NCBI GenBank assembly: GCA_001938485.1
Contig: MQRK01217781.1
Coordinates: 21,397 to 85,396 of the forward strand
Length of the DNA stretch: 64,000 bases
Reading direction: 5' to 3'
DNA from: Girardia tigrina
Lineage: Eukaryota
The translations under genes and the position numbers were made by a program. Of this stretch, positions 525 to 58,050 are shown piece by piece. The notes under the pieces were generated by a model. It was not told where the DNA came from. It worked only from the letters and a program-made list of their open reading frames with translations, and did not search any database. Every line of letters starts with the position of its first letter. Positions within the stretch are counted from its first letter, which is position 1.

Positions 525-800
525 AAAGTGAATGCCATTTTTCAAAATTTATTTTTGTAATTAATTTCGGCGGATTACTCGCCATCTTCAGACTAAATTA
601 ACACTGGCTTTTTGCAGCTTATATATGAGAAAAGTGATTATGTAATCAATCGTGTAATAAAGGCTCTTTTTGAAAATGTTTAACAGTTTAAATGTTAAAT
701 GTTTAGTCAAGTTGAGTGTGAAGCTTGAATATTAATTTTTGGATCCATGGATCTTATTAATAAGGCCTCACACGTTACTCTCTCCCAGTAATTTTTAAAT
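525..800 (-). mobile_element. Penelope-like retroelement 3' end (GIY-YIG C-terminus plus pseudo-LTR)
   Basis: The reverse complement encodes ...FKNYWERVTCEALLIRSMDPKINIQAS..., nearly the same as the GIY-YIG ORFs at 12735 and 52266. A TATA-like box and a hammerhead motif follow. Confidence 0.85.
557..595 (-). ncRNA. Minimal hammerhead ribozyme motif (PLE-type)
   Basis: Reverse complement reads CTGAAGA-T-GGCG-agtaatc-CGCC-GAAATTAAT-T: conserved core, stem II and palindromic stem III. Confidence 0.75.
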
Positions 801-1286
801 CGATTCAAAAATTTTTAAAAAGTGTATTTTTTAATTTTTATTTTATTTTAAATCTTATTGTTATGTAACTTATTATTTTTATATTATTAAAAAAGTATTG
901 CAGGGCGAAAAAAAGACTGTTATGTCAGTAGGGGAAAAAAGATAAGGCCCTGAGAATCAATTGATATTGCGATGAACCATGGACTGGGTCACATGTAATC
1001 GCATCATTTCACGTAGAGCTTACACGGGGATGATTACACCACAGACAGATATGACGAAGTTTTAGAACAGATACCTCACGAGGTAGGAACTGATTATACT
1101 TCAGATAGTGATGATGAAAGGGAAGAACCAGTAGCTCTAGAGATAGTTACAGAGTATATTAGTACTTATTACCGAATAGTACTTTATTAAAATATAATAT
1201 TTATAATAAAATTTTCCATTTAGTTTAAAAATATACCTTAAAATATTATAAATTTCTTAAAATTTTTCTCTCACAGTTTTTTCAGC

Positions 1287-3030
1287 ATGAATCTTCAATT
1301 CTTTACTTCAAAATCTGGAAATCCGATTGTTGTGTATACAGGTTATTCTTATCGCTTTGATTATGACTTAAAATCCCTAGATGGAAAATCCTGGTGCTGT
1401 GTTGCTTATGAACAATATAAATGTAAAGGAAGAATTCGTACTTCAAACAACAACGAGGCATATATTATTTTAGGTCGTCCTTCTGAGCATCATCATGCTC
1501 CTGAGCCAGGTAAAGTTGTCGGTAGGCACATTGCTCAGGTGGTTGCAACTCGTGCATCGCAGACAGTAGAGGCCCCGAGGCAAATTATTCAGAAATCTAG
1601 GACTGGGATTCCACTTGACGCTGCAATATTTCTTCCAAATTATCACTCTAGTCAACGTACAATTCAACGAAAAAGAAAACAAGAGAACGCTCCTTGGCCA
1701 ATCCAAATCATCTTTCAGAAACTAATGTTCCTGAAAATTTGAGGTTTACAACTAGAAATGAATGCCAACCGGATAATGCTCTTCAGTACAACTGCAAACA
1801 TAAATCTGATGGCTTCTTGTGAAAATTGGTTTATGGATAGGACATTCTCTGTCACTCCTCGATTATTTTACCAAGTTTATACTATACATGCTTTAAAATC
1901 AAACAAAGTATTCCCTCTTGTTTATGCATTGATGACCAATAAAACTCAATTAAATCACACTCGTATGTTTGAAGAGCTTTTAAGACAACAACCAAATTTA
2001 AATCCACAAACTATTATGATGGATTTTGAAAAAGGAGCAATGAACGCTGTTTCCACTGTATTTGGTAATGCTAATGTTAAAGACTGTTTTTTTCATCTGA
2101 ACCAATCAATTTGGAAAAAAATAAAAGAAACATCAAATCTTCCGGATCTCTATTTAAACAATGATGAAATGAGAACCATTCTGAAATCACTGATGGCCTT
2201 AGCGTTTTCCCCTGAGGATGGTGTTATCACTACCTTTTTGGCACTACTTGATCTTTCTAATGATTATCTAGAACTCGATGATGTCTTTGCATATTTTGAG
2301 GATACATTTATTGGCCGTGCTCGTGGAGAACGAAGATTACGTCCTCGATATTCAATTCAGTGTTGGAATATATATGGCCGCGTTATTTCTCATCTACCAC
2401 GCACAAACAATGCAATAGAAGGTTGGCATCGTGCGTTTCAAAATTCTATCGCTTGCAAACACCTAACTGTTTATAGTTTGATAAATCAATTTCGTACTGA
2501 ACAAGATTTTGTTGAACTAATTTTGCAGCGCATTAGAGCAGGTGAAGAATTCCCACAATTCTCATCGCAATTTTATGCCAAAGTAAGTGAGAGGATTGAA
2601 CGTGTCGTTAAGCAATACAATAATTTACGAATATTGGATATTAATTTAATTTAATATATAAGTTTAATGTTTTTGTATCTTTCTTCTATTTACACATCAC
2701 ATTTTTTTGGTGTGTTATTCATTTGTTCTAGAATGTTATTTGAATTTTTTAAATTAGGAATTTACTAATTTTTCGTATGTTGCTTGTTTATTTTTTATAT
2801 TAAAAAGAATAATTAAATGTCATGTCCATCTGAAATTTTCTATCCATTTATGTTTTAAAATTAAAACATTTGTATGATTCATTGTTTTATCATTACATAA
2901 TTAAAATTTTTTATTCATATTTTAGATGACATTGTTCACTTTTTGATAATTTTGTTGTAAATTTTTCGCTGTAAAGTCGTCCGCGATAAAGTCACCCGCG
3001 GTAAAGTCGTCGTGGTAAAGTCGCCGTACC
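1287..3030 (+). mobile_element. Degenerate Mutator (MULE) transposon: FLYWCH-type zinc finger plus MULE transposase, frameshifted
   Basis: ORF1 has WCC..CKGRI..H-H-H. ORF2 has WFMDRTF, MMDFEKG, CFFHL and RTNNAIEGWH. There is a frame break or deletion near 1700-1760. The right end has tandem taaagtc subterminal repeats ending ...cgccgtacc. No left TIR was found. Confidence 0.85.
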
Positions 3031-3489
3031 CAATTTATTGACTCAAATCCGGTGCTTCAGTTGAGTACCTTGTTCACTTTTTGACAATTTTGTTGTAAAT
3101 TTTCCGTTGTAAAGTCACAATAAACTTCTCGAAATTTACTTCGATTATCGAAATTTTGTCATTTTAATAAGTTTTATAGAGTTTTGAAAAATAGCTGTAC
3201 AAACTCTAGCCACTTTTTTAAGATTCTTTTTCAAAAACTTTTTTTTAAATTCTAGAACATTTTTCCTGTAATAGAAAGTAGGATATAAAAGGATCATACA
3301 TTTTAAAAATTCATCCGACAGCTGGTAAAAGAACTAATCAGTGCGTTTTACTGTATCCAATTATTTTCTGATATTCGACTGCCGCAGTTTCGCAAAATTA
3401 TTTATGCATTTCAACGCGCACCCTTGTATTGGTAGAGATAAGAATGTTTTAATAACCATATTTTCTATTTCTATGGGCTAAAAGTCAGC

Positions 3490-4570
3490 AGCTGTTTGAA
3501 TGAGATTATACATTTTGCACAGTGAACATTGCACAATCAACAGCATTAATGTTTTTGATTAATTCATGAAAAAATATTTTTTGTAACCACTTTTCGGTTT
3601 TCCTCCATATATTTTTCGTTTTTTCTGCAGAATATGCAATCATTTTATGTTTAAACTGTTTAGTCCTTTTCAAATTGTCTCTTAGGTCTTCCTCTTGGTC
3701 TCTCTGATAAGACTCTCCCTCAATCATAACCTTCGCTAGTACTTGGTTTGTTATCTGATGTCTACAGAAGTTCAACTTCCTTCTTTTGATGGTCTCTTCG
3801 ATTTATTCCAGTCTTTAATTCAGCATTTCTGTTACTCTCTTCAAAACGAATTCATTTATCTTTTTATCTTTCAAAATGCTCTTCAGTATTTACCTGTATC
3901 ACTTCATTTCTAACACTATATGTTTATCAATGCTCTTCTGATTTAGTATCCAACTCTAGTATTCATAGAGAAGTGTTGTCGAGGCAATAGCCTCAGTGAT
4001 TTTCATTCTACTTTTAAGTTTGAATTCTTGGAGGTTAACAACTGGGCTAAGCCTAATCATTGCTTTTGATTCAATATCAATTATTATTCAGATTTCTTCT
4101 TCTGATCCTTAATTCTCAGTGATATGAAATCCTAGATATTTAAACTCTTAACTTGTTCTCGCTTCCCTATTCAATATCAATATCCAGTTTAAGTTTGTTG
4201 CTACGGCTTCTTGGTATCTTTTTTCATTGATAATTTCTATTCCAAATTTCTCGATAACTTTGTACATCTGTTTTTAAGTTCCTGAATCTCTGCCTTGTCT
4301 TTGTCAATTAAGTATATTTTTTTCATCAAATAATAACTACGCTTTCATCTGCAGTTTCTTCAACCATCAAATAATAACTACACTTTCCTCTGAGGCTTAT
4401 TCAAACATAAACTAGGTCGTCTATTGCTTCTATAAAAACTTTCTCTAGGAAAAGTTGTATCATTGTTGGTGAAAAAATGCAGTTTTGTCATAGTCCTACT
4501 GATGATTTAAAACCAATTGCTAAATTACACGCTTGTCAATATTTTGATCTTTGTGACTTATTAAGGCTTT
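3490..4570 (-). mobile_element. Degenerate non-LTR (RTE-like) reverse transcriptase remnant
   Basis: The reverse complement gives GL*QNCIFSPTMIQLFLEKV (compare GVRQGCILSP) and a FKYLG-like motif, with many stops. Confidence 0.6.
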
Positions 4571-8200: not shown

Positions 8201-10772
8201 GAGTTATACAGATTTAAAGTTAGTAATATTTGTCGCACTTAGTTCTTAAATGCTTCCTCTATATGAATTGATCAAGAAATGATGAACTGCATCACCTGAT
8301 AAGTCATATCTGATAGCCTTGAATTTTTGCTTTGCTCAACATTATTTAAGTATCTGTATCCCCACACATATACAATATATTTTTACAAAGGATTATAATA
8401 AAATAATACTGCTCCATTCCCGAAATAGGTGTCCGATTTGGATTTTTTCAAAAGTAAAGAAAATGTGGCTTTACTTTCAAAAGATGACTATTATTTTGAA
8501 AACACTTTTTATTTATAATGTTTTTTTACAGTTATTCAAAGTTTTTCTTAAAATATTAGCTTTCAATTAAAAAATAGGAATTTTCAAGACCTCATATGAA
8601 GATCTAGACTTGAAAATATTTTTTCTAAAAATGATCAAGAAAGACATCAATTAATTCTTTAACCACTTAATGCTCGGATTATTTTTACAAAAATAGTAAT
8701 AAGTTAAAAAATAAAGTCAATTAAAAACAAAAACACGCCATTTATAAAATATATTTTTTACGACAATTAATTTCGACGGTATAACCGTCATCGTCAGGTC
8801 TCAAGAAAAAAATGATTTAAAAAATCATACTTAAAAATCTTTTTTTCTTGAGACCTGACGATGACGGTTATACCGTCGAAATTAATTATCGTAAAATTAT
8901 GTTTTATAAATGGCGTGTTTTTGTTTTTAAACATAATTTGCCATTATTTTTTAATTTTCTGAATAAATAATATTTAATAATGTCTTCAAAATGAAACAAC
9001 CCAAGATTAAAAAAGGCAAGTCGACATTATAGCTTTATGGATCGTATACATGTAAACAAGTCGAAATTCTGGAGCAACGTTCGTATTAAGGCTATTTGAT
9101 AAGTACAAAGCGCACGAATGCTATTCGTTCAAAAGCATTAGATGGTTAATAAATAAAAAATAATTATTAATATCTTTATAGACTAAAATGAATTTTCTTA
9201 AATTTACTATTTATTTTAATGTACATTCAAATTAACATTCGAAAATTTTAAATAGCAAATTATAATTGATAATATTAAACATAGAAAGGGGTTACTGGAC
9301 TAAATTCAACAAATGAACTTGAAATCCCCCTAACCCTAACCTAAACCTTTGTTGAAATTAATTCTGCATCCCCATAGAAAGACGCTTGAAAATCATTTTC
9401 TTAAACATACTTTAACTAAATGACTTTTTTAATATTAAATTACCGTTCACAATAATCAATAATATATATTAGTTCATATAATATATGTGTTCAATACTGC
9501 AAATATTTAAGGCATAACTTATTAATTAAGTACACATTGATCAAGTCTGATACTATCTAACTTTTTTCATAAATAAGTAGACTTATATTCAGATAAATTA
9601 CATTTTACAGACCAAAAATTAATCACGTTATTCAATATTTTGAAAATTGAAAAAAAATAGTAAATATTGTGCTGTAAGAAATATCAAGAATTGACCAAAT
9701 TTTTCAATACAAAAATAAATTTAAACAAAGTATCTGAAAAGTATAATGCATTGAATTAAAAATGTCATATAACAGTAACAAAAAACCAAAAGTTACCTTT
9801 AAATAGTTACGAAATTCAGTTATGCGAGTAGGAGAGAAAAACAATATAGGAATTGGAGGTAATACTGACAACTGTTTTTTTATATCTGGATAGAAATCGA
9901 TATGTCGGGCAGCCCAACTGACAACACTGAGAGCTTGGCAAGCGATACTGTGTTTTGTGAGCTCACAACTTGTACACAAAATCATAGCCAAATTAATGAC
10001 ATGATGAAATCTTTGACTTGAATCAGGATTGTAATTTAAAATCAATTCGAGATAATTCCATATTGTTAAAGTAGACAAATCATTGTTAATTAAATTACAC
10101 AAAGTATTTTTCATTCTATCCATATCATTTATATACGATTTACAGAAATTTGTCATTTGTAATAATAGGAATATTTCATCACGAGACATCGTCTAGAAAC
10201 AAACGATAAATAGTCATCTTTCTATATAATGATTCATCGTAAGAATGGACTCACGTAGTTCATAATTTGCTTGACACTGACGACATATGCTGTATTCATG
10301 AGAAAAGAGAAAATTTTTAAATCAATTGTTTTTTCATCAATAGCTCGAAAAGTGTAATGAATGGCATCGAAAAAAACTTTTGGAGGATGATCGAATATAA
10401 TTTGATTAGTAAATCGAAGATTGTTTAGATGTGTCGAAATTTGATCAACAGTTGCAAATTTTGTGACATTAAACTTATTCTAGGTTTCAATAAGAAAAAA
10501 AAGGAAATAAAAACAAAAAACCAAAGTACTTTCTCTAAGTTAATTCGGCTTGAAATATTGAACTTGTATTTTGATTCCAGAGATTGGAAAAAAATTAGAG
10601 CATTTATTTCATCATCTGATAATGGAGATGCTTTCTGAAATGAAATCAATGTTGTAAATTGCAATTGAATTGCTTGTAAATTATGATGAAATAATGCCTT
10701 AAAAATATATATCCGTCTATCTAAATAGAGTTACGTAACATAATTAAATAAATTCATTCTCATGCTTTCCAT
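5300..10772 (-). CDS. Divergent cyclin G/I-like protein, about 392 aa; exons 10772-10740, 10697-10530, 10479-10255, 10192-9797, 5653-5300
   Basis: GT-AG introns (42, 50, 62 and about 4140 nt) are all phase 0 and join into one open frame. Cyclin-box-like segments: HPPKVFFDAIHYTFR, AYVVSVK, DMDRMKNTLCNLINNDLSTLTIWNYLELI and CELTKHSIACQALSVV. The first exon is the least certain. Confidence 0.6.
5770..6394. mobile_element. Non-autonomous DNA element bounded by 17-bp inverted repeats
   Basis: attaccacgtttttata (5770-5786) matches the reverse complement of tataagaacgtggaaat (6378-6394) at 15/17. The end is gacag/gacaa-rich, as in Helentron/HINE-like elements. Confidence 0.45.
7905..8165 (-). mobile_element. 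Tc1/mariner-superfamily transposase C-terminal remnant
   Basis: The reverse complement reads LTFFSPDLASCYYGKAAKKWYEGNNV... and ...ADFRNKWNNVAKTVTETTIASLMAGIPKK (FWPDLASCHY-type motif). Confidence 0.65.
8765..8800 (-). ncRNA. Minimal hammerhead ribozyme motif (left arm of palindrome)
   Basis: Reverse complement reads CTGACGATGACGGTTATACCGTCGAAATTAATT, with a perfect 5-bp stem II. Confidence 0.75.
8851..8888 (+). ncRNA. Minimal hammerhead ribozyme motif (right arm of palindrome)
   Basis: CTGACGATGACGGTTATACCGTCGAAATTAATT. Confidence 0.75.
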
Positions 10773-12719
10773 GTGAATATTTCATTTTTTGACACACTAA
10801 GCGCCAGTGTGCCTTAGAATTCGGTTATGCATATGATACATGCTGGACTGTTTATCATCACAATTTGAATTTTATCACAGTAAATTATCATATAAAGATT
10901 TTTGATTTTTAATAATCCTCGACATAATTTCTTTTTCTTTCCTTCAAATAATTTCATCCAATTTTAAACGAAAATATATAAAAACTGATTAAAAAAACAA
11001 TTTTATTTAACTAAATTAAAATCAAAATTCGTTTCCAACTCAAAAATCAATATAAAAATGAAAGTCAAGTCAATATATTTATCAAGAAAATATGAATAAA
11101 CAATAAAGTCAAAAATTATTTAAATTAGGAATTATAATTATTTATTATTAGACTAGTAAATTGATAAATTAAATCGAAATTATAAACTTACCATTAATAT
11201 GAAAAAATTGACTATGAAATTAGAATTCGTATTATTTTAAATAATAATTGAATATTTAAACAAAATCAGAAGATTTATTAAAGATGCAGAAATAATTTTT
11301 CAATTTGTAATTTTAAATTTATAAATTTAAATTTATAAATTTAAATTTAGAAAGACAAAAAATTGAATTTAAATTATTATATTTAGTTAAAATTAAGAAT
11401 GAAAAATTTTAAGTTAAACCATTGAAACCTAATAAAAAACTTTTTATCAAAACTTTTAAAGAATTTTCGTTTATTTGAAACGGAAAAAATATCATTCACT
11501 TAATCTTTATGCTGTATTTATATTTTATATCGTTTTTTCTTCAAAATCTAAATTTTTTATTTGTTTTAGAGTGTAAAAGAGATTATTTTAATTAACCTGA
11601 ATAACCTAAAGCATGTTATTATCAGAAAATATTGTTACTATAACTCGACTTCTAACTTGTAGATAATAAGCATTTAAATAAGTTAACATTAAAGTGAGTA
11701 CTTTCAAATTTTTTTAAATCAAACTGAATTTTACTCAAATATAAAAAATATATTAATGTATAAGATAAATTTATATTTTATAATAATCACATATACAAAG
11801 GTATTTTATCTAGTAAGAATGACTTAATGTTAGTTTTTAGCAAATACTCACGAGTTTATATTTTGATAAAAGTTATGATAAAAATAAAATTTATTTTAAT
11901 AATAAAAATTGATGATTTCAAATAAATACTAAATAAAGTTTATTGAATTTAAATAATTTTACATCGTTAACAGGAGAACTAATAAATATTAACCTATTAG
12001 ATTTTTAAAAAACTTCAATTAATTCTTTATCCCGTTCAGTTTTGCTCAGATTTCTTAAATTTCCTGGTCGATTTAGATGAAAAATGTAAATACAAGTGAT
12101 GAATGAAAATTGTATCCCGTTAATTTATTCACAATCTTAAATTTTTTATCCATTAACGAAATGAAAATCCTGATGACATTTCTTCAATTTCCATGTCAAT
12201 TTAAATAGTACGACTTGTGTTCACAATTCGCAATTAAATTTCTCCTGTCCCCTAAAAATGTATGTCTTCTTGAATTCACTAGTATCTTATTTTTTTTATT
12301 TTTAAAAGAAGTTTACTTATGACAAAACTACTTCATATTTTATAATTTTTGAAAAAATGTGTCTTTAATTGTCTACTGATCTCTTGTTAGTACTTGTTTA
12401 TTTTTTTCATTTTAATAGTATTTTCTGTTTCTTTTTGGTTCATCTATTTACTTTCAACTTTTTAAAGCAATGTCCTTTATTTACTTTTGTCTTCTTGAAT
12501 AATACCCTTTTTATTGCTCAAATAATTTTTGTCGTTAATATAATTTTGTAATGTTATATATTAAAATTATCTATTAAAAAAGCTTTTAAAAATAATAGAG
12601 TATATATACATTAATAATAAACAAGTTTATTTTGAAACGAACAACGAAAATCGATCATTTTTGTAAGATTTTTTTGTAAGATTTAGTATATTCAGTATAT
12701 TCAAAGTATATTCAGCAAT

Positions 12720-13170
12720 AAATCTCGTACTCCTTTGAGTTTATGTTTCAATTTGGTTTATCAATTTTCGTGTAATTGGTGCAACACTACATACATTGAA
12801 AAGACGTCTCGTCATCTCTGTAAACGGATTCAGGAGCATGGACGATTGGGTAATGGGAGTAATATTGCTGGACATATGAAGGGTTGTAAATCAGAGGTGA
12901 AAACAACTAATTTTAAAATATTGTGCAGTAATTTTAAAAATTATTGGGAAAGAGTTACTTGTGAAGCATTATTGATTAAATCGCTTAATCCGTCCATTAA
13001 TGTACAAACAGGTTTCTCTTCCAATTCGTTGAAAATATTTAATTAGTCATTATGCAAGATGTTTACATAATCATCAGTTTGCTATATATAAGACAGCGAA
13101 TTCAACCTGAAGATGGTGGAAAATCCACCGAAATATATTGCGACAATAAAATTTGATTTTAATGGCGTTC
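12720..13170 (+). mobile_element. 5'-truncated Penelope-like element: GIY-YIG endonuclease plus pseudo-LTR
   Basis: ORF 12735-13046 has [30 protein letters not shown]...EALLIK..NPSIN, followed by TATATAA and a hammerhead. Confidence 0.9.
13107..13139 (+). ncRNA. Minimal hammerhead ribozyme motif
   Basis: CTGAAGA-T-GGTGG-aaaat-CCACC-GAAATATAT-T. Confidence 0.8.
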
Positions 13171-13415: not shown

Positions 13416-16091
13416 CCATATTACTTCGATTTAACCTTTTCTTTCATAGTGTTGTTTTACAACAACATTAAGTTTATTAGCTGAGGAATTTTAAGCAACA
13501 GAAATTCCGCTATCTATTTTAGTGTTGTGCTGCAACAACATTGCGAATATTTATATTGATTTAGGGAAACTTGAATGAATTAATTTTATGTTTTCAAGCT
13601 TGGAGTGTAATTAAAATTAACATGTAAGTTTAAGAATTATAATTTTATTTTTTATTGATGGTATATATATATTATTCAAATACATAGTTTTCTGAGAATA
13701 AAAAATATGATCCATATTATTTGAACCTTTACTTTTGATTGCAATTAATAACATTTTGCAATTAATAAATAATACCACATGTAAAAAATATAATGTATTT
13801 TATTAAAGTTGTTCACAAACAACATTGCGATGATTTGGATTCTCATTTGATAACATTTATTTAAATTTTTACATTTTAGAATGGCATCCCGTTATAGTTT
13901 GCGAGCTTCTCGTGCAAGTGTGACAGATTTCAGGCAACTAATGGCACGTGGTGTTCTGATACTACCAGAAAATACAGGACAAAGGGATGAATACATTGAG
14001 GATGTTATTGACGATGTTGACGATGATATAGAGGAGCATGAAAGTGAGAATGAACCTCAAGAAGATAAAGAGAATGAACGAGTTTACCGTTGGAGAAGGG
14101 GAATTTCTACACTTCCTGTTAACACACAATTTACTGGAAATAATGAGCTAATAGTTGTTGATGTGAAAGAGCCTTCAGAATACTTTCGTGAATATTTTAC
14201 TCAAGAAGTTTTTAAACATTTGGTTGAACAAACAAACTTATATTCTGTTCAGAAAGGTGGAAAAAGTATAAAAACAGATGAACAAGAAATTGAGCAATTT
14301 ATTGGACAGCTACTATTCATGGGATTTCATAAATTGCCCTCCTATCGAATGTACTGGTCTCCTGAAACACGAATCGAGTCTGTAGCTGGGGTTTTAAGTT
14401 TGAAGAGGTTTGAGACATTGAAGAGATATTTTCACGTGAATGATAACTCTAAAATTCCCGATAATAAACCTGATCGCCTGTACAAAGTTCGACCACTTTT
14501 GGATTCAGTTTTTAAAGTCTGTCAGTCTAAAACTCCCAAAGAATATAATTCAATTGATGAACAAATGATACCTACTAAAAGTAGGACAGATATGTAGCAG
14601 TACCTTCCTAAAAAGCCCAAAAAATGAGGAATTTAAGTTTTTGCAAGAGCCAGTACCGATGGAATGGTCCATAACTTTGAAGTATATGGGTATTTGAAAA
14701 GGATGCCAAAGAATCAACGGCTGATATTGTTGTACGGCTATGTGAATTTCTGCCATAAAAACGTTGGACACAAGCTTGTTTTCGATCAGTATTTTCACAC
14801 CTTGGATTTAGTAATTCATCTGAAAAATAGTGGATATCACTTGCTGGGAACAATGCAGTCTATAAGAATGAAAGGAGCTCAAAAAATACTTCTTTCAGAA
14901 AAAGAGCTGAAACAGAAGGGCCGTGGTTCAATGGATTCGGTTATTGATGCCAATTCTGGAGTAGTTCTTGTCCGATGGTCGGACAATGGACTAGTGCAAA
15001 CTATATTAACGTTTTTACCACCAGAGAAAGGCACTGACTGCAATAGATGGTCTTCTCGAGAAAAAGAATATGTAATTGTCCAACGTTCTAAGTCAATAGA
15101 AGCCTACAATAAGAACATGGTAGGTGTTGACCTCAATGATAAGTTAATGACACTTTACAGATTACGGCTGGGCACAAAGAAGTTCTACATACATGTAGTA
15201 TACGTTTGCTTGAATTTGGCTGTTATCAATTCTTGGCTCCAGTACCGAAGAGACTGCATACAACTTGATATCCAAAAAAAACAACAGTTCAGCCTTTTGA
15301 AGTTTCATTGTTCCATAGCTGACTACTTGTTAAAATACAAAAAACAAAATCAAACCTCAGTGGAAGGCAATCTTCATCTTCAAATAATTCTAATTTGTCT
15401 AAAAAAAGCAAAACTAACGCTGCTGAGCCGATACTTGGTAAAGAAATTAGAAATGATGAAAAATGCCATTTTCCATTATTTGATCAACAATTGCAACACA
15501 GATGCCGCTTTTGCAAAAAGGTTATACATATGTCAAATGCTATAAATGTAATATTTTGTATGCCTATTATCATCTCGTAACTGCTTTTATGACTTTCAAC
15601 ATGAATAATGATTGTTTCTGTTGCATTTTTATTGTAAAAATACTAACGTATTATTTTAAATGTAAGTTATTTTCATTTTAATATATGCAACTCATTATAT
15701 GTATACATTTTAAATTATTTATGTGAATTTCTAATTTTCGCAATGTTGTGCATGAACAGCATTCTTATAAATCGATAAATCAATAATCGATTATGTAATA
15801 CATTAAAAGTATGATATATGGGTCCCAAACAAGTCTCATGAATATGTTTAAAAATTTTGTTAATAAGATCTCATAATTTGGGAAATAAAGGGTTAACACC
15901 GCGGCCTTTATTTCAAATGCTGATTCCGAAGGTGCGGTATATATATTTTTTCCATCACAAATATAATTTTCAAGATTTTTTAGTTTAAAGACAAGTGAAA
16001 GGTTTTTTTAAAAAGAGAAAAAAATCATAAAAAAACGGCGTTTATTACAAAATATCGCATAAGGATGCGGCGTTAAATCGAAGTAATACGG
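13416..16091. mobile_element. TA-flanked Tc1/mariner/pogo-type MITE whose left TIR is split by the piggyBac
   Basis: Left end TA|ccatattacttcgatTTAA...caccgc; right end gcggcgttaaatcgaagtaatacgg|TA. Confidence 0.8.
13435..15892 (+). mobile_element. Full-length piggyBac (PGBD2/3-like) transposon, transposase inactivated
   Basis: TTAA TSDs at 13431-34 and 15893-96, with TIRs ccttttctttc / gaaataaaggg. Motifs include LVEQTNLYS, RFETLKRYFH, LYKVRP, SIDEQMIP, FDQYF, WSDN and YNKNMVGVDLND, plus a Cys-rich tail in another frame. Stops and frameshifts near 14597-14660 and 15360. Confidence 0.93.
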
Positions 16092-18612: not shown

Positions 18613-18939
18613 TTTAAAATGAATTATAATTATATAAAAATATATAAACAAAATAGTTAGAAAATTATTGCATAATAAATAATTAGGGAAAGGAATAATG
18701 AATATTTAACTTATCTGTTATTTCACTTTTCAACCCTTACCTTTTCAAGAGAGAATACAGTCACATAATCTATGATTGAAAGTTAGAGTCCTCCACTTTG
18801 CATGAATATTTGTACGTAAACTTTCTGCAATTATTCAGGATTGAGTTTAACAACTCTTTCATTTAAAACTATTTTTCCTTATAGGGTAATGTTTGTTGCT
18901 TCTCTGTTTTCTAGCAAATTAGTCAGGGTTAAACAACCC

Positions 18940-44400: not shown

Positions 44401-47400
44401 GATCATGATTCTGTGCGACTGTTGGCGGTCGAGGCGACAGTTCAGTTGTGTGGGGCTATAAAAATGTCGTGTTCCATTGCCGATATGGAAAGTTGGTCGG
44501 TTTCCTATGAAGAAGAACTGGAAAAATGTATTGTGCCGCAACTATTGAAAGCTGTTGTTGATAAATCGTGGCGAGTTCGATATATGGTTGCCGATAAAAT
44601 AGCTGAAATCCAGGGCGCTTTGGGAACTAATTTATCGAAAAAACATTTACTGGTGAGAATAATTTATGAGTTTATTATTTTTTTTTTAATTTGTGATTTA
44701 ATTTAATGATATTTTTTGTATTTATAATTTTTATGTTTTAAATGTTTTTAAATACACCGATTGATTTTTTTTATTAAAAATTATAAGTAAATGTACACGG
44801 CTTTAGGAGATCCCTTTAAGGTGTGGAATTTACAATATTATACACAGATTCCTTTGAGATTGAGGTCCACTTGTCCTGTTAATAATAACTCAGAGCAACG
44901 AGTGTTCCATTTCTCTCTCTTACTTCTCACAAATCTTCTCTATTTGCTTGACGTCGGACCTTTGAGGTACCTATGGCATTACAGAAATTCTTGTAATCTC
45001 AAACCAGCTCTTCACCATTTAAAAGTCTTGTTCGAATGTCGTTGCACTCACCCCCGACTATAAGTTAATGAGACCATTCTCAGAGATTTCGACATATTCC
45101 TGGTTATTGACAAAGGGATGATACAAACTATTCAAGATACAAAGGCAGTGGTCCAAATACCTCTCGGATAAAGCAATTGCACACTATCATCGACCCTCTA
45201 CTGTGTTTTAAAGGGTAACCTAAATAAAACACCATAAAACTTATTATTTCTACTGATGTTTATTGCAATAAATGTGGTATGAACATAACTGGTAGTCACG
45301 GGGATACAGCTCTTTTTGTCGCCAAACTCACACTCAACCATCCGATTTGAATAACGTAAGATGTGACTCGTCAGACCAAACGATGTTAACCAACTGTCCA
45401 AGACTTTCGCTCTTTTCACCACGATAATATCTGTCTTCTGTTTGTCTCGCGAATATCTGATTTTTTCTTTCCAAGTCTTCTGAAGTAGCGGTAGTAGCGA
45501 CGGGCAGTGTATAGAAAGGGCAGGGACGTAATCAGCGCAAGTTAGTGACTTGCGCTTACTAGGAATTCCTTGTTCAAGTGGGATAATTTCAATCCACTAT
45601 TCCTGACACGACAGTGATTCAGCAGGTTACCCGGTCATTTCTAGCTAGGAATAAAACTCGCTGGTACTGCCATTGTAGCGCGCGTGTGGCCCCGGAAATC
45701 TAAGGGCATCACAGACCTGTTATTGCTCCATTTCATTTAGCTAAACACTATTTATTCCTCTAAGATGTCAGCATTTTGTGATTTCCATAATAAGTCATTT
45801 CATGCAGACGTCTCCTTATGGTCCACTTGGAGACTGGGAATGGGATATATAAAAAGTGATTTGGGTGAGGGAAGAATTTCTGGTTTAGAGGGCTAGCAAG
45901 ACATTTATCGATGGGAGCCACAATAAGAAAAATGTGGTAATATATTACATAATATATTACAGTAAACATAAAACCAAGGTTTTCAAAATTTTAAAAATCT
46001 TTAAGCGGTACTAGATCTAGCAATTCTTCATTGACATCTGCAGAAACATATCAAATAAATACAGTCAATATTGGAATATATTGAGTATCCGTAGATTTGC
46101 CAAGAACTAAATTGGTTGCAACACAACTTTTTACATTTCTTATCAACTGCTCTAGACAATACTTACTGATTTCAGTAAGACGTCACTCAGTTTTATGACA
46201 TGACATTAAAATTTGCTAAATTAATGAAGTAGTTTACTATTTATGAGATACAGATAGTTCTAAACCCCTTGATATTCTTAATAAAATCACCCTTTGTATA
46301 TGAACGTTTTGCACGAGCAATATTTCACAATATAGCAAAGCCAGCGTTGACCACAGAATTATGTTTGTTAGCAAAATGCGAGATTAATTTTTTCTAAATA
46401 AGTAGCGAAGACTTCAAGGAATTTATTTTACATCTTAAATTAGAATTATGCGGATATTCAACAATAAAGTAAGCATGGTTTTGATCATGGTATCACTTTA
46501 GATTACTTACTTTGTACTGAGAAAGTGATTGACTGAAAATAAACACAGTGATTTTCCGTTTCTATCGACAAATGCATTATTTTCTTCGTATTTTGGTCTC
46601 AAACCTCTACTTTCATCTTCATATCTTTTCTTGTTATTTGACATTCATTGATTTTGCTAATGATTTTCAATAAACAAACTATTTTTCAGTACATTCAAAA
46701 TATTTTATTGTAAAAGCGTCATTCATTGAATATATGTAAATATTACTATTAGTCGTGGATAAAATCTTAGTGATTTCTTATAGTTAAAAAAGTTTGTCCT
46801 CGTTTGAATAATAAACTATTACAATTTATAAAATTTTGAATAACGAAACCATAAATTTAGTTATCTTGTGGTTTAAAAAGATAAGTTTTTTATAAATGAA
46901 TGACTTCTAAATGTTAAGCTTTGCTAACTGAAGCATTTCAATATTTAATGTCTATTTTTTATTTTAATGAGTAATAAAAAATATTGATTAGTTGTGGATA
47001 CAAAAGAATTGATAATAACAATAAAATGAATGTAAAATAATCTTCTACTTATATAAAATTTTAAATTTAACCATTTCCAGTCCATTGTTGCCATATGGCA
47101 ACATATTTGAAAAATTAAATTACAGTTATCTCTTTTACCCAATTTAAATTTTACACATAGTAATAGTTTCTAAAAAGTCTAATAGATGACACTACACATA
47201 TTAGAATGCAAAAAACGCGATTCTCACTTTTTTCTTAGCAATTTAAATCAACATTGTTTTTTTTCAAAATTAATAATTTGGGCTTGGAAGGGTTAACTCA
47301 ATTTTAATGCATAATAAACTTTACACTAATTAATAATTACACTTTCAAATAAACAGAAAGTTAGAGATGACATCATGATTACGAGAATTGATCACATAAT

Positions 47401-50400
47401 TTTCATATTCGATGTCTATCTTTTTCTAATCTTAAAATATTTTTGTATCTTTGCACATTTATCAATTGGAAACAGATGAATTAATCTAATTTTCTGATGT
47501 TGGCATTAGCAAAATTACTCATTTTTTTATTTCTTCTTAAGAAAATGAATGATATCATTTCAACATTTTGTATCTTATTAATTTTTTGTGTGACAAAATG
47601 TGATATACGTTTTAAATTCTAAGAAATTAATTTTAAAAACCGAATGATTTCTTTAAATTAAAAAAATAATCTAGGGTGACCAGTTGCTTAAAACCGGTAG
47701 GATGACAATCATTGATAAAAATCCAGACAGTCATATATTTCGTTGATTCATCTGCGTTAGATTAAATATGAGGTATTTTCCTTCAAAATATATGTTAAAA
47801 AGATGTATATTTTTGGGATGACAACAGGTTAAGCTGACAGAAATTGTTCTAAATTTTCATTTTACAGAATTTGAATTTAAAATATTTAATTAAATGACAT
47901 TGTTCAAATACTAATACTCATACATAATTCTCGTATAAATTTACGACTTCTTTCACAAGTACCTTCTTTTATGGCATATTTTCACGCTTAATTAAAATTT
48001 CACACTTAACATTAAATGTCTCAAAATTAGATAAAAATTTTATGAAACATAGACAGTTTTTCAAATCCCGCCCGGACGAGCATAAGAACCCGGACATGTC
48101 CGGAAAAATCCGGATGTATGGTGACCCTAATTAATCTTATATCACAGAATCTCGGTACAAATATTGAGACGAAAAATTAAAGGAATTGAAGTGCTTATAT
48201 TTTCATGCTATATTTTTTTATTTATTTGTATAAACGAAAATGTTCTTATTAATTGTATTATTAGGGAGCATTTATAACCCTTCTTAAAGACAGCCAAGCT
48301 GAAGTTAGAGCAGTCAGTGCTAGTAAGATCAATTCATTCGCATCAGAACTTTCGGACGATAACAGGAAACAAATCATCAAAGAAACTATGATTCCAGTTG
48401 TAAAAGAATTGATGATAGACACCAATTGTCATGTCAAATCATCTTTAGCTACTTCAGTTATGGGACTAGCTAAATATATTGATACACAAGATACAATAAC
48501 CCATTTATTACCAATTTTTATTCAACAATTGAAGGATGAAAATTCAGAAGTTTTAACTAAATTTCTCACCATTTCAATTTAATTCTCCATTTGCAGGTCA
48601 GAGTGAACATCATTTCTAACATCAATGCAGTACACGAAGTATTGGGAGTTGAACAACTGAGTTTAAATCTTCTGCCTACAATAGTTGAACTGTCATCTGA
48701 TAGCAAATGGAGAGTAAGACTGGCGATAATTGAAAATTTCCCGCTATTAGCTAGACAATTGAGTCGAAAATTCTTTGATGATCAACTGAAAACCGTTTGT
48801 TTGTCGTGGCTGGTGGACCATGTCTATGCAATCAGAGAAGCTGCTGTGAATAATTTGACCAAATTAACGGAAATTTTCGGTGTTGAATGGGCTGAATCTA
48901 TGATTGTTCCACGTGTAAGTTTTCTCTTTATTCAATCAATTTGGATTTTTGTTTGGCTATATTTAACTTTTTTACTAATCGATATAGCAAACACGTGATC
49001 AATATTTTTTACCATAACTTGTTTTTATATCAATTTTAACACTAAACTCTCAAAATGGCGGATTGAACATTTAATAATTTCAATTTCCATTATAATTATG
49101 TGAATATGGTTTTATAAGATTATGAAGACTTTCCATAAGACAACATTGTAATTATAATTCAATGATAATGTTCCTTTTAAGCACTTTAATTTAAATAATA
49201 GAATGAATTAAACCGAATACACATTTTACGTCGGTAGCTCTAGTGTTAAAGCAAAAAGTGGCACTTATATCCTTTAAATGTTTTCGCTAACCATCTTTTA
49301 TTTCTCACAAAAAAGGTCAGTCGTAATTGCATTTCATGAAATGCTTTTTACAATTGACTCTGTAAGAGAGTGTAACTCTTTACCGTGACGAAGCGAAGGC
49401 AGAAGAACAAGCCACTAGTCGGTTATCGAGAAATCTGCATGCAAATGTCTCCACCTAAACGGTGCGATTAAATTAAATTAAATTAAACCCCTTTCTCCAA
49501 ACAACTTGTTTCCAGGGACATGGTTATGTATACAAAGAAAAGATAACTCTTCCCAAAACACCCGCTAACGTCTCTGATATCGCTTGTTGCCAAAACAACA
49601 AATCTCCGTTTTCAAGTTCAGGAATATTAAAGTTGCGAGGGGGGAATGATTTTATGAGCCAGCGATACCCACCAATGAACAATGTTTTTTCACACACTGA
49701 AGTTTTACCAGAATAAAAAGTCCAGGATCTGGAATTTCAACTGTTGCTTCACCACTCTTATAGTCGACACGTTGCCCCGTTAGATTTTTATTTGTTCTGA
49801 TCGATGGCTCACTTCTTGCATGGTCATAAATTGTGGACGTTGAAATTAGGCGTGGAAAGTTTTTTGTTTCAAACGATATAAAAATTGTAGATGATTTGAT
49901 AAAAATAACTGATTTAAATTGATTGTGGTTTGTCGAATAAATAGATAATTTGATGTTGCTTGAATTTCAGTTTAAGTAAAGTTGATTAAACAGTTGATAT
50001 TATTTCAAAATATCCTCCGCCATTGACTGACCAGAACAGAGTTCATACATCAATCCCATACTTTCACACTTAAGAATCAATATTTAGCAACGAATCACCG
50101 GTGTTTTCAACATTCCAAATATTAAGCTGTTTTTCCAAGTTTATATTTTTTGTTTATACATCATGGAATTCATTTTTACGTTTCCATGTCATGTGTCAGA
50201 TTAACCCTTCGTAACATGCTGTGACACTTCTGTAACAAACCGCTGTAACTCTAACTATTAACATATCACATTTTAAATCACCGGTACATGCTCGGTGTGT
50301 AACAGATATGCAACAGTGATTTAAAATGTGATATGTTAATAGTTAGAGATCATATAAGAGTTGCAACGGTTTGTTACAGAAGTGTCACACCATGTCGCCA

Positions 50401-53345
50401 TATAAACAACATCAATATGAGGTTTACAACATTTATTAATATTACAAGCGCATTCACTATTTGACATCTCTCTTGATCAATTTTTTCTGAGTTCAAACTA
50501 ATTATTTTCAATAAATGAAAATCTGTTAATAAGAATTATTAAATTATAAAGAATCTAATTGGTTAAAATTAAATTACATTAAAAAATAAATAATACATTC
50601 AAAAATTATTTTAAATCTTTTTACTTTAAAATTAAATTAAATTATTTTTAATTAGTAAGAATCAAAGAAAATATCAATCATCCATCTGTGTAGGAGAGGC
50701 ACAATCCGAATCAACATTCTACATGCACAATATCAATACACAATTCAAAACATTCCTCACAATAACAAATGAAATAAATTTGGAGTCAGCTGTAATTATG
50801 GGAGATAATCATAAAAATCGATTCGTTTATGTGAATGATTTTTATTTCGGAATTAATTTAATTGCTAATTAAATCGTTAAGTTCGTTTATATTGATATTA
50901 ATAAGGAAATTTCAAAGACCAATAAATTTGTTTACATATTGGCAACAAATTAAAATGACATTTTTAAGTTTATATAAAGTTTATATATAAGTCCATATAA
51001 AAAAATATTTCGCAAATGTTTTATGTAATAGAAATTATGGATACATCGACTTGGAAGGTTTGGAAAAATTAGTTATAGAAAGTAATGTGCAGAGTGACCT
51101 TAGAATTGACCTAAAAGTAATAATAATATTAATTTAATTCGACGTTTTTATTCGCGGTGTTTTGTCCAAAAAACGTGTTGGTTATTCAAAATATATTGTT
51201 ATTAATTTAGACGGATCAGCCGCCATCATCAGACCGAATTAACGATGATATACTCGCGTTTATATATCAATCATTAATTTTATATATCAATTACCGTTTT
51301 CCAACCGTTTATATATAATCATTATGTCATTTAAATCATGAAAATACTTTCAATAAAGTTGAAGAGGATAAAAAGATTTGATCAACAATACTTCACACAT
51401 CGCCCTCTCCCAGTAATTATCGAATTGTGAACACAAAATCTTAAAATTACTTACAAATTATGGAGAAATAATGTTAATGAACACCATTGCTGTTCGGGAA
51501 TTGTTATATTTTGCAACATCGAATTTACGATTTCTATTTAATAATGATTGGTATCAACAGGTTGATGGGGTAGCTATGGGTTCTCCATTAGCTCCAACTT
51601 TAGCTTCGATATTTCTTTCAAAGGTTGATAAGTCTATATGATGGTATAAACGTTTAAAATTTATAAACGTTATGTAGATGATATTTTTCTATTGTTTAAT
51701 AATAAAGAACAAGTCGAGCTTTTCTTAAATTATATGAATTCCCTACATTCAAATATAAAATTCACGGTAGAATATGAAAACAATAATGTTTTACCATTCT
51801 TAGATCTTTTGATAGAAAGAGCGAAAAACAACCATTTTGAAACTGGGATCTATAGAAAGAAAACTAACAGTTTTTGTGAACCTAAATATATAAGAAATAT
51901 GATAAAAATATGATGAAATCTATAGATCTTGGACACTTTCATCTACGTACACTAAATGTAATGAAATTATTAATAAGTTAATGAATTTACTCCATAAAAA
52001 TGGATATTCCAAATCGATAGTTGAAAAATTTACTCGGGAAACTGTCGATAAATTAATTAAATCGGAAAATGAAAATGAAAAATCAAATACAATAAATGGC
52101 GACAGAAACAAAAATGAGATAAATACTAATTATGATAATATTGGTTTTGCTTTGACTGTTCCCTACTCTGGGGGTTTCAGGAAATTCAAAAACTCTATTT
52201 TGAAACATGATTAAAATAATTTATTAAATTTAAAAATTGTATCTGGATCATGCAAGATAGGAAGTTTGTTTAGTAGTAAATCTATCACTCCAACTGGGTT
52301 ATGTTCCAATTTAGTTTATCAATATAAATGTAATGGGTGTGACGCCACATACATCGGAGAGGCTTGTCGTCATCTCTGTAAACGGATTCAGGAACATAAT
52401 CGCAGGGAAAGTGATAGCAATATTGCTCAACATAAGAAGAACTGTTTGAATAGTAAAGTTGATGTAAGTAATTTTAAGATTTTGTGTTCACAATTTGATA
52501 ATTACTCGGAGAGGGTGATGTATGAAGCATTGTTGATTAAATCTTTTGATCCTAAAATCAATGTCCAAACACCATCCTCTTCAACTTTATTGAAAGTATT
52601 TTCATGATTTAAATGACATAATGATTACATAAACATTGCTTGGATATATATATAATATACATATAATATATATCTATATCTATATATTATATGTATAATA
52701 TATATATATTGGATATCGTTAATTTAGTCTGATGATGACGGTTGATCCATCGAAATTAATCATAATATATTTTTATGAATTTTTTTTTGTTTTTTAAAAA
52801 TTCCTTGTCGTCATTTTTTAAATATGTTACAAAATTACATTTTTAATAAATGTTGAAAATGAAAACGAAGGAAAAATGCGCCTCTCAGAAATGATTTTCA
52901 TATTTACAATCCGTCTTATCGAAATAGTCGCTCATTCCGAAATGATTATTGATTTCCAATTATTTCGACAGATGGTCCAATTGTCGAAAGATGCCAATTA
53001 TCTTCATCGCATGATCTGTCTCCAATGCATCAGTTCCCTGGCACCTCTGCTGGGTCCCAGCTTGACTAAAGAAAAATTTTTACCCACTGTTCTATACATG
53101 AGGGACGACAAAGTCGCTAATGTCCGATTCAAAGTAAATTCTCTTCATCATTGGAAATATAGTGCTACAAATCGTTTCAGACAGCGCAAACACTGGCTAA
53201 AATATGTATGTCACTTGATGCTCCGGTTCTGCAGTCGGAAGTGAGACCGTGCTTGGATAAGCTTGTTTGCGATGAAGACTTGGATGTCAAATTCTTTGCA
53301 TTGGAAGCAGTCGAACAACTTCAGTCTCATTTGAAATCGGTTTAA
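41499..53345 (+). CDS. PPP2R1A: Protein phosphatase 2A 65 kDa scaffold subunit A, 609 aa; exons 41499-41792, 44047-44652, 48265-48549, 48597-48914, 52972-53133, 53181-53345
   Basis: [84 protein letters not shown] and DVKFFA. All introns are GT-AG and phase 0, with AATAAA after the stop. Confidence 0.97.
42000..43900. repeat. Long imperfect AT-rich inverted repeat filling PP2A intron 1
   Basis: 42320-42480 is the reverse complement of about 43490-43655. The outer boundaries are approximate. Confidence 0.7.
42504..43400. mobile_element. Long-TIR element (same family as 26881-28760) carrying a pogo transposase N-terminal fragment on the - strand (about 42680-43000)
   Basis: The right TIR reverse complement is ggtatagttccgtacgagccccagg. 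The cargo reads [46 protein letters not shown] (BrkDBD/CENP-B HTH-like). Confidence 0.7.
45230..45488 (-). mobile_element. Possible non-LTR RT fragment abutting the 18S fragment
   Basis: [30 protein letters not shown] resembles the LINE RT segment before the GVPQG motif. Confidence 0.35.
45489..45748 (-). pseudogene. 18S rRNA gene fragment (3' region) within PP2A intron 2
   Basis: The reverse complement contains GCAATAACAGGTCTGTGATGCCCTTAGA and GATTACGTCCCTGCCCTTT..CCCGTCGCTACTACCG, with substitutions at normally invariant positions. Confidence 0.93.
45990..46640 (-). mobile_element. hAT (Charlie/Buster/SPIN-like) transposase remnant
   Basis: YKVSNLK*YHDQNH (BED finger), [10 protein letters not shown] and [20 protein letters not shown]. 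Confidence 0.7.
47672..48129. mobile_element. hAT-type MITE
   Basis: TIR tagggtgacca / tggtgacccta, with subterminal ccgga repeats. Confidence 0.75.
50201..50396. repeat. Palindromic piggyBac-type MITE remnant
   Basis: Starts TTAA-CCC. The arms acatgctgtgacacttctgtaacaaaccg...atcac and gtgat...cggtttgttacagaagtgtcacaccatgt are complementary. Confidence 0.7.
51200..51235 (-). ncRNA. Hammerhead motif, probably inactive (GAAA changed to TAAA)
   Basis: Reverse complement reads CTGATGA-T-GGCGG-ctgat-CCGTC-TAAATTAAT-A. Confidence 0.6.
52729..52761 (+). ncRNA. Minimal hammerhead ribozyme motif, sense to the PP2A pre-mRNA
   Basis: CTGATGA-T-GACGG-ttgat-CCATC-GAAATTAAT-C, giving an AUC cleavage triplet with one mismatch in stem II. 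Confidence 0.7.
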
Positions 53346-53619: not shown

Positions 53620-54069
53620 AGGTATAATGAATTTAATAAAAAAATTAACCTAAACTAGCAAGAGAACAAGTAAACCTAGAAGGAGATATTAAGATTTTTT
53701 ACATGTCAGGAATTACGTCTTATGATCAAAAAAATAGACTTCCCTAGAAAATACAAAATATTGAATCGAGGTTGAAGATGCATCGAAAGAGGATTAAACA
53801 ATATAGAAAAAAATCAAAGATTAAAGGATTTTTATCAATTTAAAAAAAATGAATTGAGTAGAGTAACAATTTTAAAATTAATATAATAAACAACTAGATT
53901 ATAATAAAAAAAGTCATTACGAAACCCATTTTTTTTTATTATAATCTAGTTGTTTATTATATTAATTTTAAAATTGTTACTCTACTCAATTTATTTTTTT
54001 TTTAAACTGATAAAAATCTTTGATTTTTTTCTATATTGTTTAATCCTCTTTCGATGCATCTTCAACCTC
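53620..54069. repeat. Dispersed repeat (second copy at about 58658-58890) with a local inverted duplication
   Basis: aggtataatgaatttaat...ctagaaggaga...tgaatcgaggttgaagat occurs at both loci. 53767-53801 is the reverse complement of 54036-54070. Confidence 0.7.
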
Positions 54070-54107
54070 GTAATGATATTCATTTCCTTTCCTTTTTATG
54101 CTATATA

Positions 54108-54211: not shown

Positions 54212-54263
54212 TCTATATAATTATATATATGCGTCTGACTATATATATATATATATATATATA

Positions 54264-56669: not shown

Positions 56670-56788
56670 GTGATAAAAGACAATCAAATCAAACATTCAA
56701 GACAAATAAATTATATGTTCGCACAAATATTCTAATTTCCAATTGTCCGCAATTTTTTTCTGTTAATTAAAACAACTGTTTTACTGTA

Positions 56789-57260
56789 TCAGTCGTTTTC
56801 CTCATCACACGCCACCGTGATGTCATCATCATCAATTTCAAAATCTTCTAACCACCCAGGAGCGCGACGAACCCTCCTCGGTCGGCTTGTCGCCGCATCA
56901 AAAACTGCCTCTCCTACCTCCTCCTCAATTCGACTCTTCATTGCGCTCTTGCTGTGGGCCTTCTCCATCGATTCCAACCTCGTTCATGTCAACTCGTTCT
57001 GATATTGCTGGCACACGTCTAAAATCGGCCACGTGCCTAGGAATTCCGTCTACCTCGACAGACTTTTCAGAATTGATTCGAGACACCACTCCTTTAGTCC
57101 ACCTTGTCGTGCACCTTGCGCCACCCGGCTTCACATACGATTGCTCACCGGGTGCAAATTCCACTCCATACCGTTGTTCGATCATAGAAGTCGTCATTGA
57201 AAATCGCCACTCATACGAGAAGATTCCATTGCTGACACTGAATCACCGCTTAAACCTGTT
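56789..57260 (-). mobile_element. Ty3/gypsy integrase C-terminal fragment
   Basis: YVKPGGARCTTRWTKGVV..VEVDGIPRHVADFRR and RPRRVRRAPGWLEDF. Confidence 0.75.
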
Positions 57261-57779
57261 TTTGGGGTCAAAGTATAATAGTATACCATCTCTAAAAAAC
57301 TTATAAAACTTTCATTTATAATAAATAAAATAATAAGAAAGCTCAGTGGAAATATTTTGAAAAAATATTTTACATGTAAATAACGACATTCAAATTCGAC
57401 CTGCAAGTGGTAATGAAAATCCAATTATAGTGCAGGATTTATTCCTTTGAAAAGTTCTTTCTGGTTAAACTGATTTGACAGTAATATTTTGGAAAATAGA
57501 GGATCGAATGATATATCAGAGAAAATGTCAGATACTTCAAAGAAATTTCACTGAAATGGCCATTGCCGTGATGACAATGGTATATGAGAAAGTCCCTCAA
57601 AGTCTTATATTCTTTTGATTCGAACTTTAGAAAATGTTGAACAAATGTGACAAATTTGGCGTAATTTGTGATTGGTCGTTTTCTTTTTGGTGACTCGCTT
57701 CGATTTTTGAAATTTATAAAATTGAAAGAGTAATATTGCTGAGCATAAAAAAACGTGTAAATGTAATATAAGCATAAAT

Positions 57780-58050
57780 GATTTTAAGATTTTGTGCAAG
57801 CATTTTAAAAATTATTGGGAGAGAGTGTCATGTGAAGCATTGTTGATAAGATCATGTGATCCTAAAATCAATGTTCAAACAGCACTCTCAACTAATTTGT
57901 TAAGAGTTTTCGATTAGACTTACATAAGTGATTACATAATCATTCTTTTCATATATAAAAGCAATAAAAAAGAACATAATCAGTGATCTGATGATGACGG
58001 TTAAACCATCGAAATATATTATCCTGAAATATATTTTTAAATGGCGTTTA
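57780..58050 (+). mobile_element. Penelope-like element 3' end
   Basis: [37 protein letters not shown], followed by TATATAAA and a hammerhead. Confidence 0.88.
57981..58026 (+). ncRNA. Hammerhead ribozyme motif with plausible stem I
   Basis: cagtgat-CTGATGA-T-GACGG-ttaaa-CCATC-GAAATATAT-T-atcctg; cag(t)gat pairs with atcctg. Confidence 0.8.

Follow-up and report, generated by a model that had tools for sequence, protein, structure and literature searches.

What do hammerhead ribozymes do at the ends of Penelope-like elements (PLEs), and why should nearly all of those in one genome carry the same extra base in their core? These questions are raised by a 64,000-nt stretch of Girardia tigrina DNA (MQRK01217781.1, positions 21,397 to 85,396; assembly GCA_001938485.1), hereafter the window, for which a preliminary description had reported seven hammerhead-like motifs. 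All seven are present, with C3 at 591(-), 8797(-), 8855(+), 13107(+), 51232(-), 52729(+) and 57988(+); the positions given earlier do lead to the motifs, but minus-strand copies had been listed by their low coordinate instead of by C3. In our view the motifs are quite probably the 3′ pseudo-long terminal repeat (pseudo-LTR) ends of five truncated Penelope/Poseidon-type insertions, each with a minimal hammerhead whose core overlaps an in-frame AUG, the likely start codon of the reverse transcriptase (RT)–endonuclease.

Minimal hammerheads in the pseudo-LTRs

A strict hammerhead descriptor recovered four of the seven motifs, and six when one stem II mismatch was allowed, compared with means of 0.007 (strict) and 0.023 (one mismatch) in 300 block-wise dinucleotide shuffles of the window. 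A covariance model trained on nine genomic subfamily copies, all from outside the window, found precisely those seven motifs at 44–61 bits, with the runner-up at 14.6 bits. Rfam did not recover them: hammerhead families were absent among its 13 window matches at E≤10, and its miRNA and sRNA matches at 8.76–8.90 kb were rejected as artefacts of a fold-back insertion. The strict pattern has at least 22,366 exact matches in the 1.43-Gb genome and none in the reversed control.

The core CUGANGA..GAAA..UH was found in type I order in six of the seven window copies and in all nine subfamily representatives. GAAA had been described as common to all copies; it is present in six, but the copy at 51232 reads TAAA (G12 lost). 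The other elements were found as described: an extra U between A9 and G10.1 in 7/7 copies, a palindromic stem III, a GIY-YIG stop codon plus TATA-like box ahead of five motifs, and a downstream motif, AATGGC[G/A], 3′ of five and absent after 51232 and 52729. The G10.1–C11.1 pair is formed in every window copy and invariant in the nine representatives. Position 17 is U in five of the window copies, and stem II pairs are broken at 52729, 57988 and 591, in the first two by a C.A mismatch that the preliminary description omitted. Five motifs lie after a GIY-YIG stop codon; the remaining two are subfamily F copies, and that subfamily is linked to RT–endonuclease sequence in locus L098. Because 8797 with 8855, and 51232 with 52729, are inverted pairs, the seven motifs amount to five insertion events, representing five subfamilies of Penelope/Poseidon-type retroelements. 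The identity proposed earlier, minimal type I hammerheads in pseudo-LTRs of endonuclease-bearing PLEs, is thus supported.

The motifs closely resemble the minimal hammerheads of metazoan PLEs (Cervera and De la Pena 2014, PMC4209133). Type I order, the short helix I, the palindromic helix III, the extra base between A9 and G10.1 and the G10.1–C11.1 pair are shared, as are the multiplicity of consensus families within a genome, the predominance of single copies from truncated elements, and opposite-strand pairs. The closest in shape is a Schmidtea mediterranea entry in Fig. S3 of that paper, with a 5-bp stem II, a 5-nt loop, an A-U helix III and an extra U. Our genomic count exceeds the ‘remarkable’ 9,000 in Xenopus, although the descriptors differ. 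In the parts of the paper available to us, all features of the preliminary description are covered but the TATA box and the downstream motif. Non-LTR retrozymes (bioRxiv 10.64898/2026.07.22.740005) also have type I hammerheads related to those of PLE pseudo-LTRs, but they form head-to-tail tandem arrays, whereas in the window the copies occur singly or head-to-head, five of them after endonuclease sequence.

The elements have the domain order DKG–RT–GIY-YIG, with CxxC and two His. A 603-aa frame in L098 matched RVT_1 at E 1e-6 and 29 bits, slightly below the 29.6 cut-off, and the DKG, CxxC and two His were read in its sequence. By inspection, its RT–endonuclease linker has no CX2-5CxxC zinc finger, a feature of Neptune and Nematis (PMC8557442). 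By domain order, motifs and the zinc-finger-free linker alone, the elements appear to fit Penelope/Poseidon of that study. The longest ‘open frames’ (1,112 and 752 aa) were rejected as runs of N. Another GIY-YIG PLE fragment, of greater divergence, occupies L098:576-1208 (+), immediately upstream of the subfamily F element; the hammerhead pattern is unmatched after it. Further minimal hammerhead families, with 30–31 nt cores, G+C-containing stem III palindromes and the extra U, were seen at L235:1531(-), L240:1173(-) and L061:1255(+), with no GIY-YIG end seen upstream in these loci. Several hundred copies of a subfamily E variant (L025, L186, L204-L212) carry a 3-nt bulge inside stem II that keeps the frame and distorts the helix.

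Comparison of the nine subfamily representatives showed that 96% of 99 cells were paired, compared with 26–64% in slid controls. Two-sided change was found in five of the 11 pairs, two in stem I, two in stem II and one at the centre of the stem III palindrome. The compensatory changes are UA/CG and GC/AU/UA at helix I pairs and UA/AU at the helix III centre; the third helix I pair is formed in just 5/9 representatives. The palindrome is kept in all nine, with the central pair swapped in four, and the catalytic-core positions are all invariant. Since the shuffle control ignores relatedness and 112 of 500 shuffles equalled the number of pairs with two-sided change, we regard the covariation as supportive and not as a formal test. 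Stem II covariation had been described among the window copies; it stands between subfamilies, but two of the four stems quoted for it reflect decay, as GGCG/CGCC at 591 and GGCGG/CCGTC at 51232 are single-copy departures from the subfamily form, with no covariation. In 24 family A copies found via the endonuclease, changes affected 15/235 stem II bases, 3/240 core bases and 67/3,784 bases of upstream DNA. Family A copies (L030-L059) were also changed at 17/234 CpG positions (7.3%) compared with 67/4,528 other sites (1.5%), an excess that hints at CpG methylation of these repeats. The earlier suggestion that several PLE subfamilies kept the RNA structure under selection therefore agrees with the covariation between subfamilies, but individual copies decay without a trace of selection: selection acts on the source elements, not on dispersed genomic copies.

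An AUG in the core and a predicted hairpin downstream

A9, the extra U and G10.1 spell AUG, with the U as the middle letter. We examined 91 loci around the N-terminal domain, of which 67 were without a sense motif match and 4 without an anchor, leaving 20 rows and 18 distinct loci, all 5′-complete copies, with a sense hammerhead upstream. The AUG was in frame with the N-terminal domain at 16 of these 18, and the frame between them was stop-free at 13 (five of which contain N). The in-frame loci include all six subfamilies examined, with spacings of 207–222 nt, and family A has an in-frame stop four codons upstream of the AUG. No other in-frame Met common to the subfamilies was found ahead of the conserved domain. 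Genome-wide, 22,366 matches have U as the extra base and 432 have some other base (U, 98%); the 100 listed of these 432 resemble sporadic derivatives of the same motifs. Longer variants number 755; in the first 100 of them, 75 add 3 nt and two add 6 nt by hand count, and the sole amplified length variant seen adds 3 nt. We consider it likely that the AUG in the ribozyme core is the start codon of the element's RT–endonuclease protein; the extra U can be explained in a second way, as a letter of the in-frame AUG of the open reading frame (ORF).

The extra base differs in other animals. Whereas it is U in nearly all matches here, a hand count of 56 published motifs (PMC4209133) gave A in 30, U in 12, C in 11, G in one and none in two. 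AUG is spelled by 10 of the 56 (hand count); by eye, six of these ten are open over the sequence shown, and five of the six have GAAA in the same codon phase, with Schmidtea, Clonorchis and Schistosoma among them. The ribozyme/AUG arrangement may therefore be common to a wider PLE lineage. AUG or start codons are unmentioned in the available main text of that paper, and in the literature searched, with several subscription papers outside the search, start-codon overlap was found only in PMC11167929. In the element of that study, PAc (Poseidon, Anolis carolinensis; Frangieh et al. 2024), the ORF begins at stem II and the cut lies 26 nt downstream, an overlap of ORF start and ribozyme that the G. 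tigrina elements probably share.

Upstream of the core, a TATA-like box starts 31–40 nt before C3 in 90 of 139 distinct copies (background 2.5%), with a spacing of 34 nt in 68. Further upstream, 40–70 nt before C3, a palindromic element is present in 95/139 copies (background 0.4%), for example at 646(-), 13062(+) and 57931(+) in the window; we take it to resemble a bZIP binding site. An initiator-like site, a loose motif with no background figure, places C3 at +4 in 70 copies and at +7 in 29. With its palindromic element, TATA box and initiator-like site, the pseudo-LTR of a source element would be an RNA polymerase II promoter whose transcript would begin 3–6 nt before C3, and such a start would explain the 2–3 bp stem I. 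Of 14 sequencing runs listed, all as contigs, two were recorded as RNA. A fall in sequencing depth after the ribozyme, in contigs from four runs that are possibly DNA, was rejected as a signal, as it mirrors copy number; no point at which many molecules start or stop was listed for them, a feature that contigs cannot reveal.

The downstream motif AATGGCG was rejected as the ORF start codon, being out of frame in subfamilies B, D, E and F, where it reads across Lys-Trp-Arg (B and E), Trp-Arg (F) and Asn-Gly-Val (D), and absent in A and C. It forms the 5′ arm of a predicted second hairpin (hairpin 2) at about +40 to +85 from the AUG. The arms differ in subfamilies A, C and G and still pair, and those of D pair despite a 5′ arm in another codon phase; a closing stem of at least 6 bp is formed in 15/18 segments. 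Pairing was better between cognate arms than between mixed ones; of 362,880 permutations, 58 were equally good, and the cognate combination ranked 1/24 in each of three sets of four dissimilar families. In the arm test the unshifted windows ranked 6/720, compared with 245, 614 and 650 of 720 for windows shifted into the ORF (controls run without subfamily G). No account of a covarying tail hairpin was found in the literature searched, which again left several subscription papers outside.

The 3′ ends of 138 assigned copies were bimodal, with 34 at +65–74, in or just past the hairpin loop, and 47 at +90–104; 17 run on into the ORF, and none lies before +30, the location of the cut site. Subfamily assignment left out 12/139 copies, whose subfamily is without a 5′-complete reference. 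Nine of ten inverted pairs with two truncated ends combined a short and a long end (binomial p about 0.01), the modes being ~30 nt apart; three of 13 pairs were left out for having a 5′-complete or unscored end. The short/long pattern matches the one-sided 30–40 bp ‘tail’ of Penelope. In PAc, two RT start sites in a stem-loop bound a 30–40 bp tail, and the ends here likewise cluster in and just after hairpin 2 (PMC11167929). However, the PAc starts lie 111–118 nt into the ORF in an AC-rich stem-loop, whereas the ends here lie around a U/A-rich hairpin nearer the AUG, and the PAc evidence is biochemical for one family, whereas ours is comparative across subfamilies and from sequence alone. With Adineta vaga Penelope (PMC3846280) and the general PLE plan (PMC8557442) the elements share the inverted 5′-truncated copy, the one-end tail, the TATA box with initiator-like site, and a pseudo-LTR holding the first ORF codons; in contrast, no convincing target-site duplication was found at the window's two inverted insertions.

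Insertions and other features of the window

Features of the five insertions and their surroundings (ends of copies counted from the AUG)
Feature	Position	Strand	Remarks
Hairpin 2 5′ arm, subfamily E copy	near 538	-	
Minimal hammerhead, subfamily E	555..594	-	C3 591; AUG 585-583; predicted cut after 559 (U17); one stem II pair lost
3′ end of GIY-YIG endonuclease gene, then promoter-like pseudo-LTR	595..800	-	Palindromic element 646; TATA 625
Subfamily F fold-back insertion: two head-to-head pseudo-LTR stubs without endonuclease or TATA	8714..8955		Left end short (+71), right end long (+99); ends approximate
Minimal hammerhead, subfamily F	8762..8800	-	Core, stem II and 3-bp stem I intact; AUG 8791-8789
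Minimal hammerhead, subfamily F	8852..8890	+	Stem I 1.1-2.1 pair mismatched; AUG 8861-8863
Predicted hairpin 2	8910..8944	+	5′ arm 8910, 3′ arm 8939; within long ‘tail’ end
GIY-YIG endonuclease 3′ fragment, subfamily D	12687..13046	+	62-74% DNA identity to 52262-52607
Minimal hammerhead, subfamily D	13104..13142	+	Core and stem II intact, stem I weak; AUG 13113-13115; hairpin 2 5′ arm at 13162; short end ~+70
Inferred intron (GT..AG), host PP2A scaffold-subunit gene	48915..52971	+	~4 kb; exon join from sequence only
Inverted 5′-truncated pseudo-LTR of subfamily A element	51188..51455	-	
Broken RT core (YVDD), thumb and GIY-YIG endonuclease of 5′-truncated PLE	51456..52607	+	
Minimal hammerhead, subfamily A	52726..52763	+	Stem II C.A mismatch; C17; AUG 52735-52737; long end ~+90, taking in hairpin 2 3′ arm at 52808
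GIY-YIG 3′ fragment and pseudo-LTR promoter region, subfamily B	57728..57983	+	Palindromic element 57931; TATA 57952-57954
Minimal hammerhead, subfamily B	57984..58046	+	Stem II C.A mismatch; AUG 57994-57996; hairpin 2 5′ arm at 58041; short end ~+68

Pfam matched the endonuclease (PF01541) at 52215-52604 with E 2e-5; the subfamily D fragment taken alone had no Pfam match. The 5′-truncated RT–endonuclease element and its inverted pseudo-LTR together span 51188-52825, within the inferred host intron. The hammerhead with C3 at 51232 (G12 to U) is predicted to be dead. More generally, we predict that the window copies are inert stubs, because the core or stem II is broken in four, two would base-pair together (the 8797/8855 inverted pair would fold on itself at -141 kcal/mol) and the last has a weak stem I.

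The host gene of the inferred intron, encoding the PP2A scaffold subunit at ~41.5-53.3 kb (+), is unusually divergent, one exon being 45–55% identical to every listed animal homologue (120 listed); the host is a fast-evolving animal. Inside this gene region, at 45534-45674 (-), lies a divergent eukaryotic small-subunit rRNA fragment (Rfam RF01960, 65.7 bits), probably a dispersed piece of rDNA. An uninterrupted 579-aa frame at 16966-18705 (-) is possibly a lineage-specific retrogene; its N-terminus has a RING finger that Pfam scored below cut-off, and another of its cysteine clusters is RING-like. Broken MULE, piggyBac-like (DDE_Tnp_1_7) and mariner transposases and LTR-retrotransposon-like fragments occupy 1242-2654, 13854-15545, 31447-32495 and 18820-20585; the pieces of the LTR-retrotransposon-like fragments that were tried had no Pfam match. 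Long inverted repeats at 21197-21746, 50249-50348 and 53767-54070 are fold-back-like or resemble miniature inverted-repeat transposable elements, and are unrelated to the hammerheads.

Possible roles of the ribozyme

The pseudo-LTR would drive transcription of the source elements, and their translation would begin at the AUG within the ribozyme. The RNA to be copied would be uncut at the 3′ ribozyme or re-joined; on it, the reverse transcriptase would begin at two points located in and shortly beyond hairpin 2, which would give the short and long ends. Hammerheads with U17 cleave slowly. Because of the short stem I, the weak A-U stem III (self-pairing of the A-U-only palindromes is just -0.2 to -0.8 kcal/mol) and the predominance of U17, the ribozyme is predicted to be slow, and it would depend either on the element's protein or on a partner copy reached through the palindromic stem III. 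Cleavage after codon 9 would part the cap and AUG from the ORF; therefore its likeliest role would be processing or shut-off of the element's own RNA rather than template making. The PAc ribozyme requires protein and is dispensable for insertion in vitro (PMC11167929). We suggest, tentatively and at less than even probability, that the pseudo-LTR may be a compact switch: cap, very short leader, start codon and ribozyme core would occupy the same ~35 nt, so that translation and ribozyme folding would be mutually exclusive; bound protein would induce the cut after codon 9 and shut off the element's own mRNA; and the covarying hairpin 20–60 nt downstream would set the two RT starts that make the ‘tail’.

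Several observations weigh against the main interpretation. The predominance of A as the extra base in the published motifs of other animals makes the AUG overlap lineage-specific, not general. The N-termini of 50 homologous proteins of at least 760 aa, whose starts are predictions, did not include the family's start peptide and so give no support for a general overlap. No whole intact ORF was found among the loci examined, and the initiator-like site would also pass for a 3′ splice acceptor. Hairpin 2 has little thermodynamic stability (z +1.0 to -3.9 in 18 segments), its arms lie in shifted registers in subfamilies A and C, its 3′ arm doubles as code for a conserved Leu-Pro/Ser motif, and its test windows were placed after the hairpin had been seen. 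The 3′ end points come from local alignment in AT-rich DNA and may overshoot by several bases.

Four other explanations were weighed. The ribozyme might, in line with the published hypothesis of dimer cleavage, cut tandem read-through transcripts to unit-length RNAs via a stem III dimer, which we regard as possible but doubtful. Such processing fits the palindrome kept in all nine representatives despite its swapped centres, the occurrence of partial-tandem copies with a 5′ ribozyme and the weak self-cleavage of dimers and trimers in vitro (PMC4209133); copies ending 40–75 nt beyond the cut site fit a circular template, for which a published model exists, and re-ligation would likewise rejoin AUG and ORF. 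However, self-pairing of the A-U-only palindromes is very weak, PAc ribozyme mutants insert normally in vitro, and the RNA-seq data available for PAc have no reads at the cut site (PMC11167929). We think it unlikely that the fold has been retained because it serves the element's protein as a binding or promoter-proximal signal, with cleavage incidental or absent. The U17 of most window copies, the 2–3 bp stem I and the very weak stem III would suit a mere signal, but the invariant core and the covariation of the two stem I pairs adjacent to the cut site are as expected under selected catalysis.

The sequence before C3 could instead be a 3′ splice acceptor, as in Drosophila virilis Penelope, whose intron ends at helix I (PMC4209133); the TATA-like box would then be intronic, and the true 5′ end, possibly with the start codon, further upstream. 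A U-rich tract followed by AG, 1–4 nt before C3, is indeed present in six subfamilies, but subfamily G lacks the AG, the TATA–C3 spacing is tight, and no GT..AG joint there was listed for contigs of four sequencing runs, which may be DNA; we judge this reading improbable as well. Most remote is the idea that dispersed copies are functional host elements under selection, for instance cutting host pre-mRNA in introns. The 52729 copy does lie in sense orientation in the inferred PP2A-A intron, but stem II has changed in family A at 15/235 bases against 67/3,784 upstream, a stem II pair or the core is broken in four of the seven window copies, and the 8797/8855 pair would fold on itself. We find this hardly credible.

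The interpretation that we prefer, a minimal hammerhead sharing its core with the likely start codon, bears on the open question of PLE hammerhead function. The motif class is known and common; what is added to it here, the AUG overlap in six subfamilies and the predicted tail hairpin, is modest. With its six or more diverged subfamilies and insertions in the tens of thousands, a single genome provides natural mutants and junction statistics. These suggest that the RNAs used as templates for insertion do not end at the cut site, that cleavage would take away the start codon, and that the tail may be set by the second hairpin.

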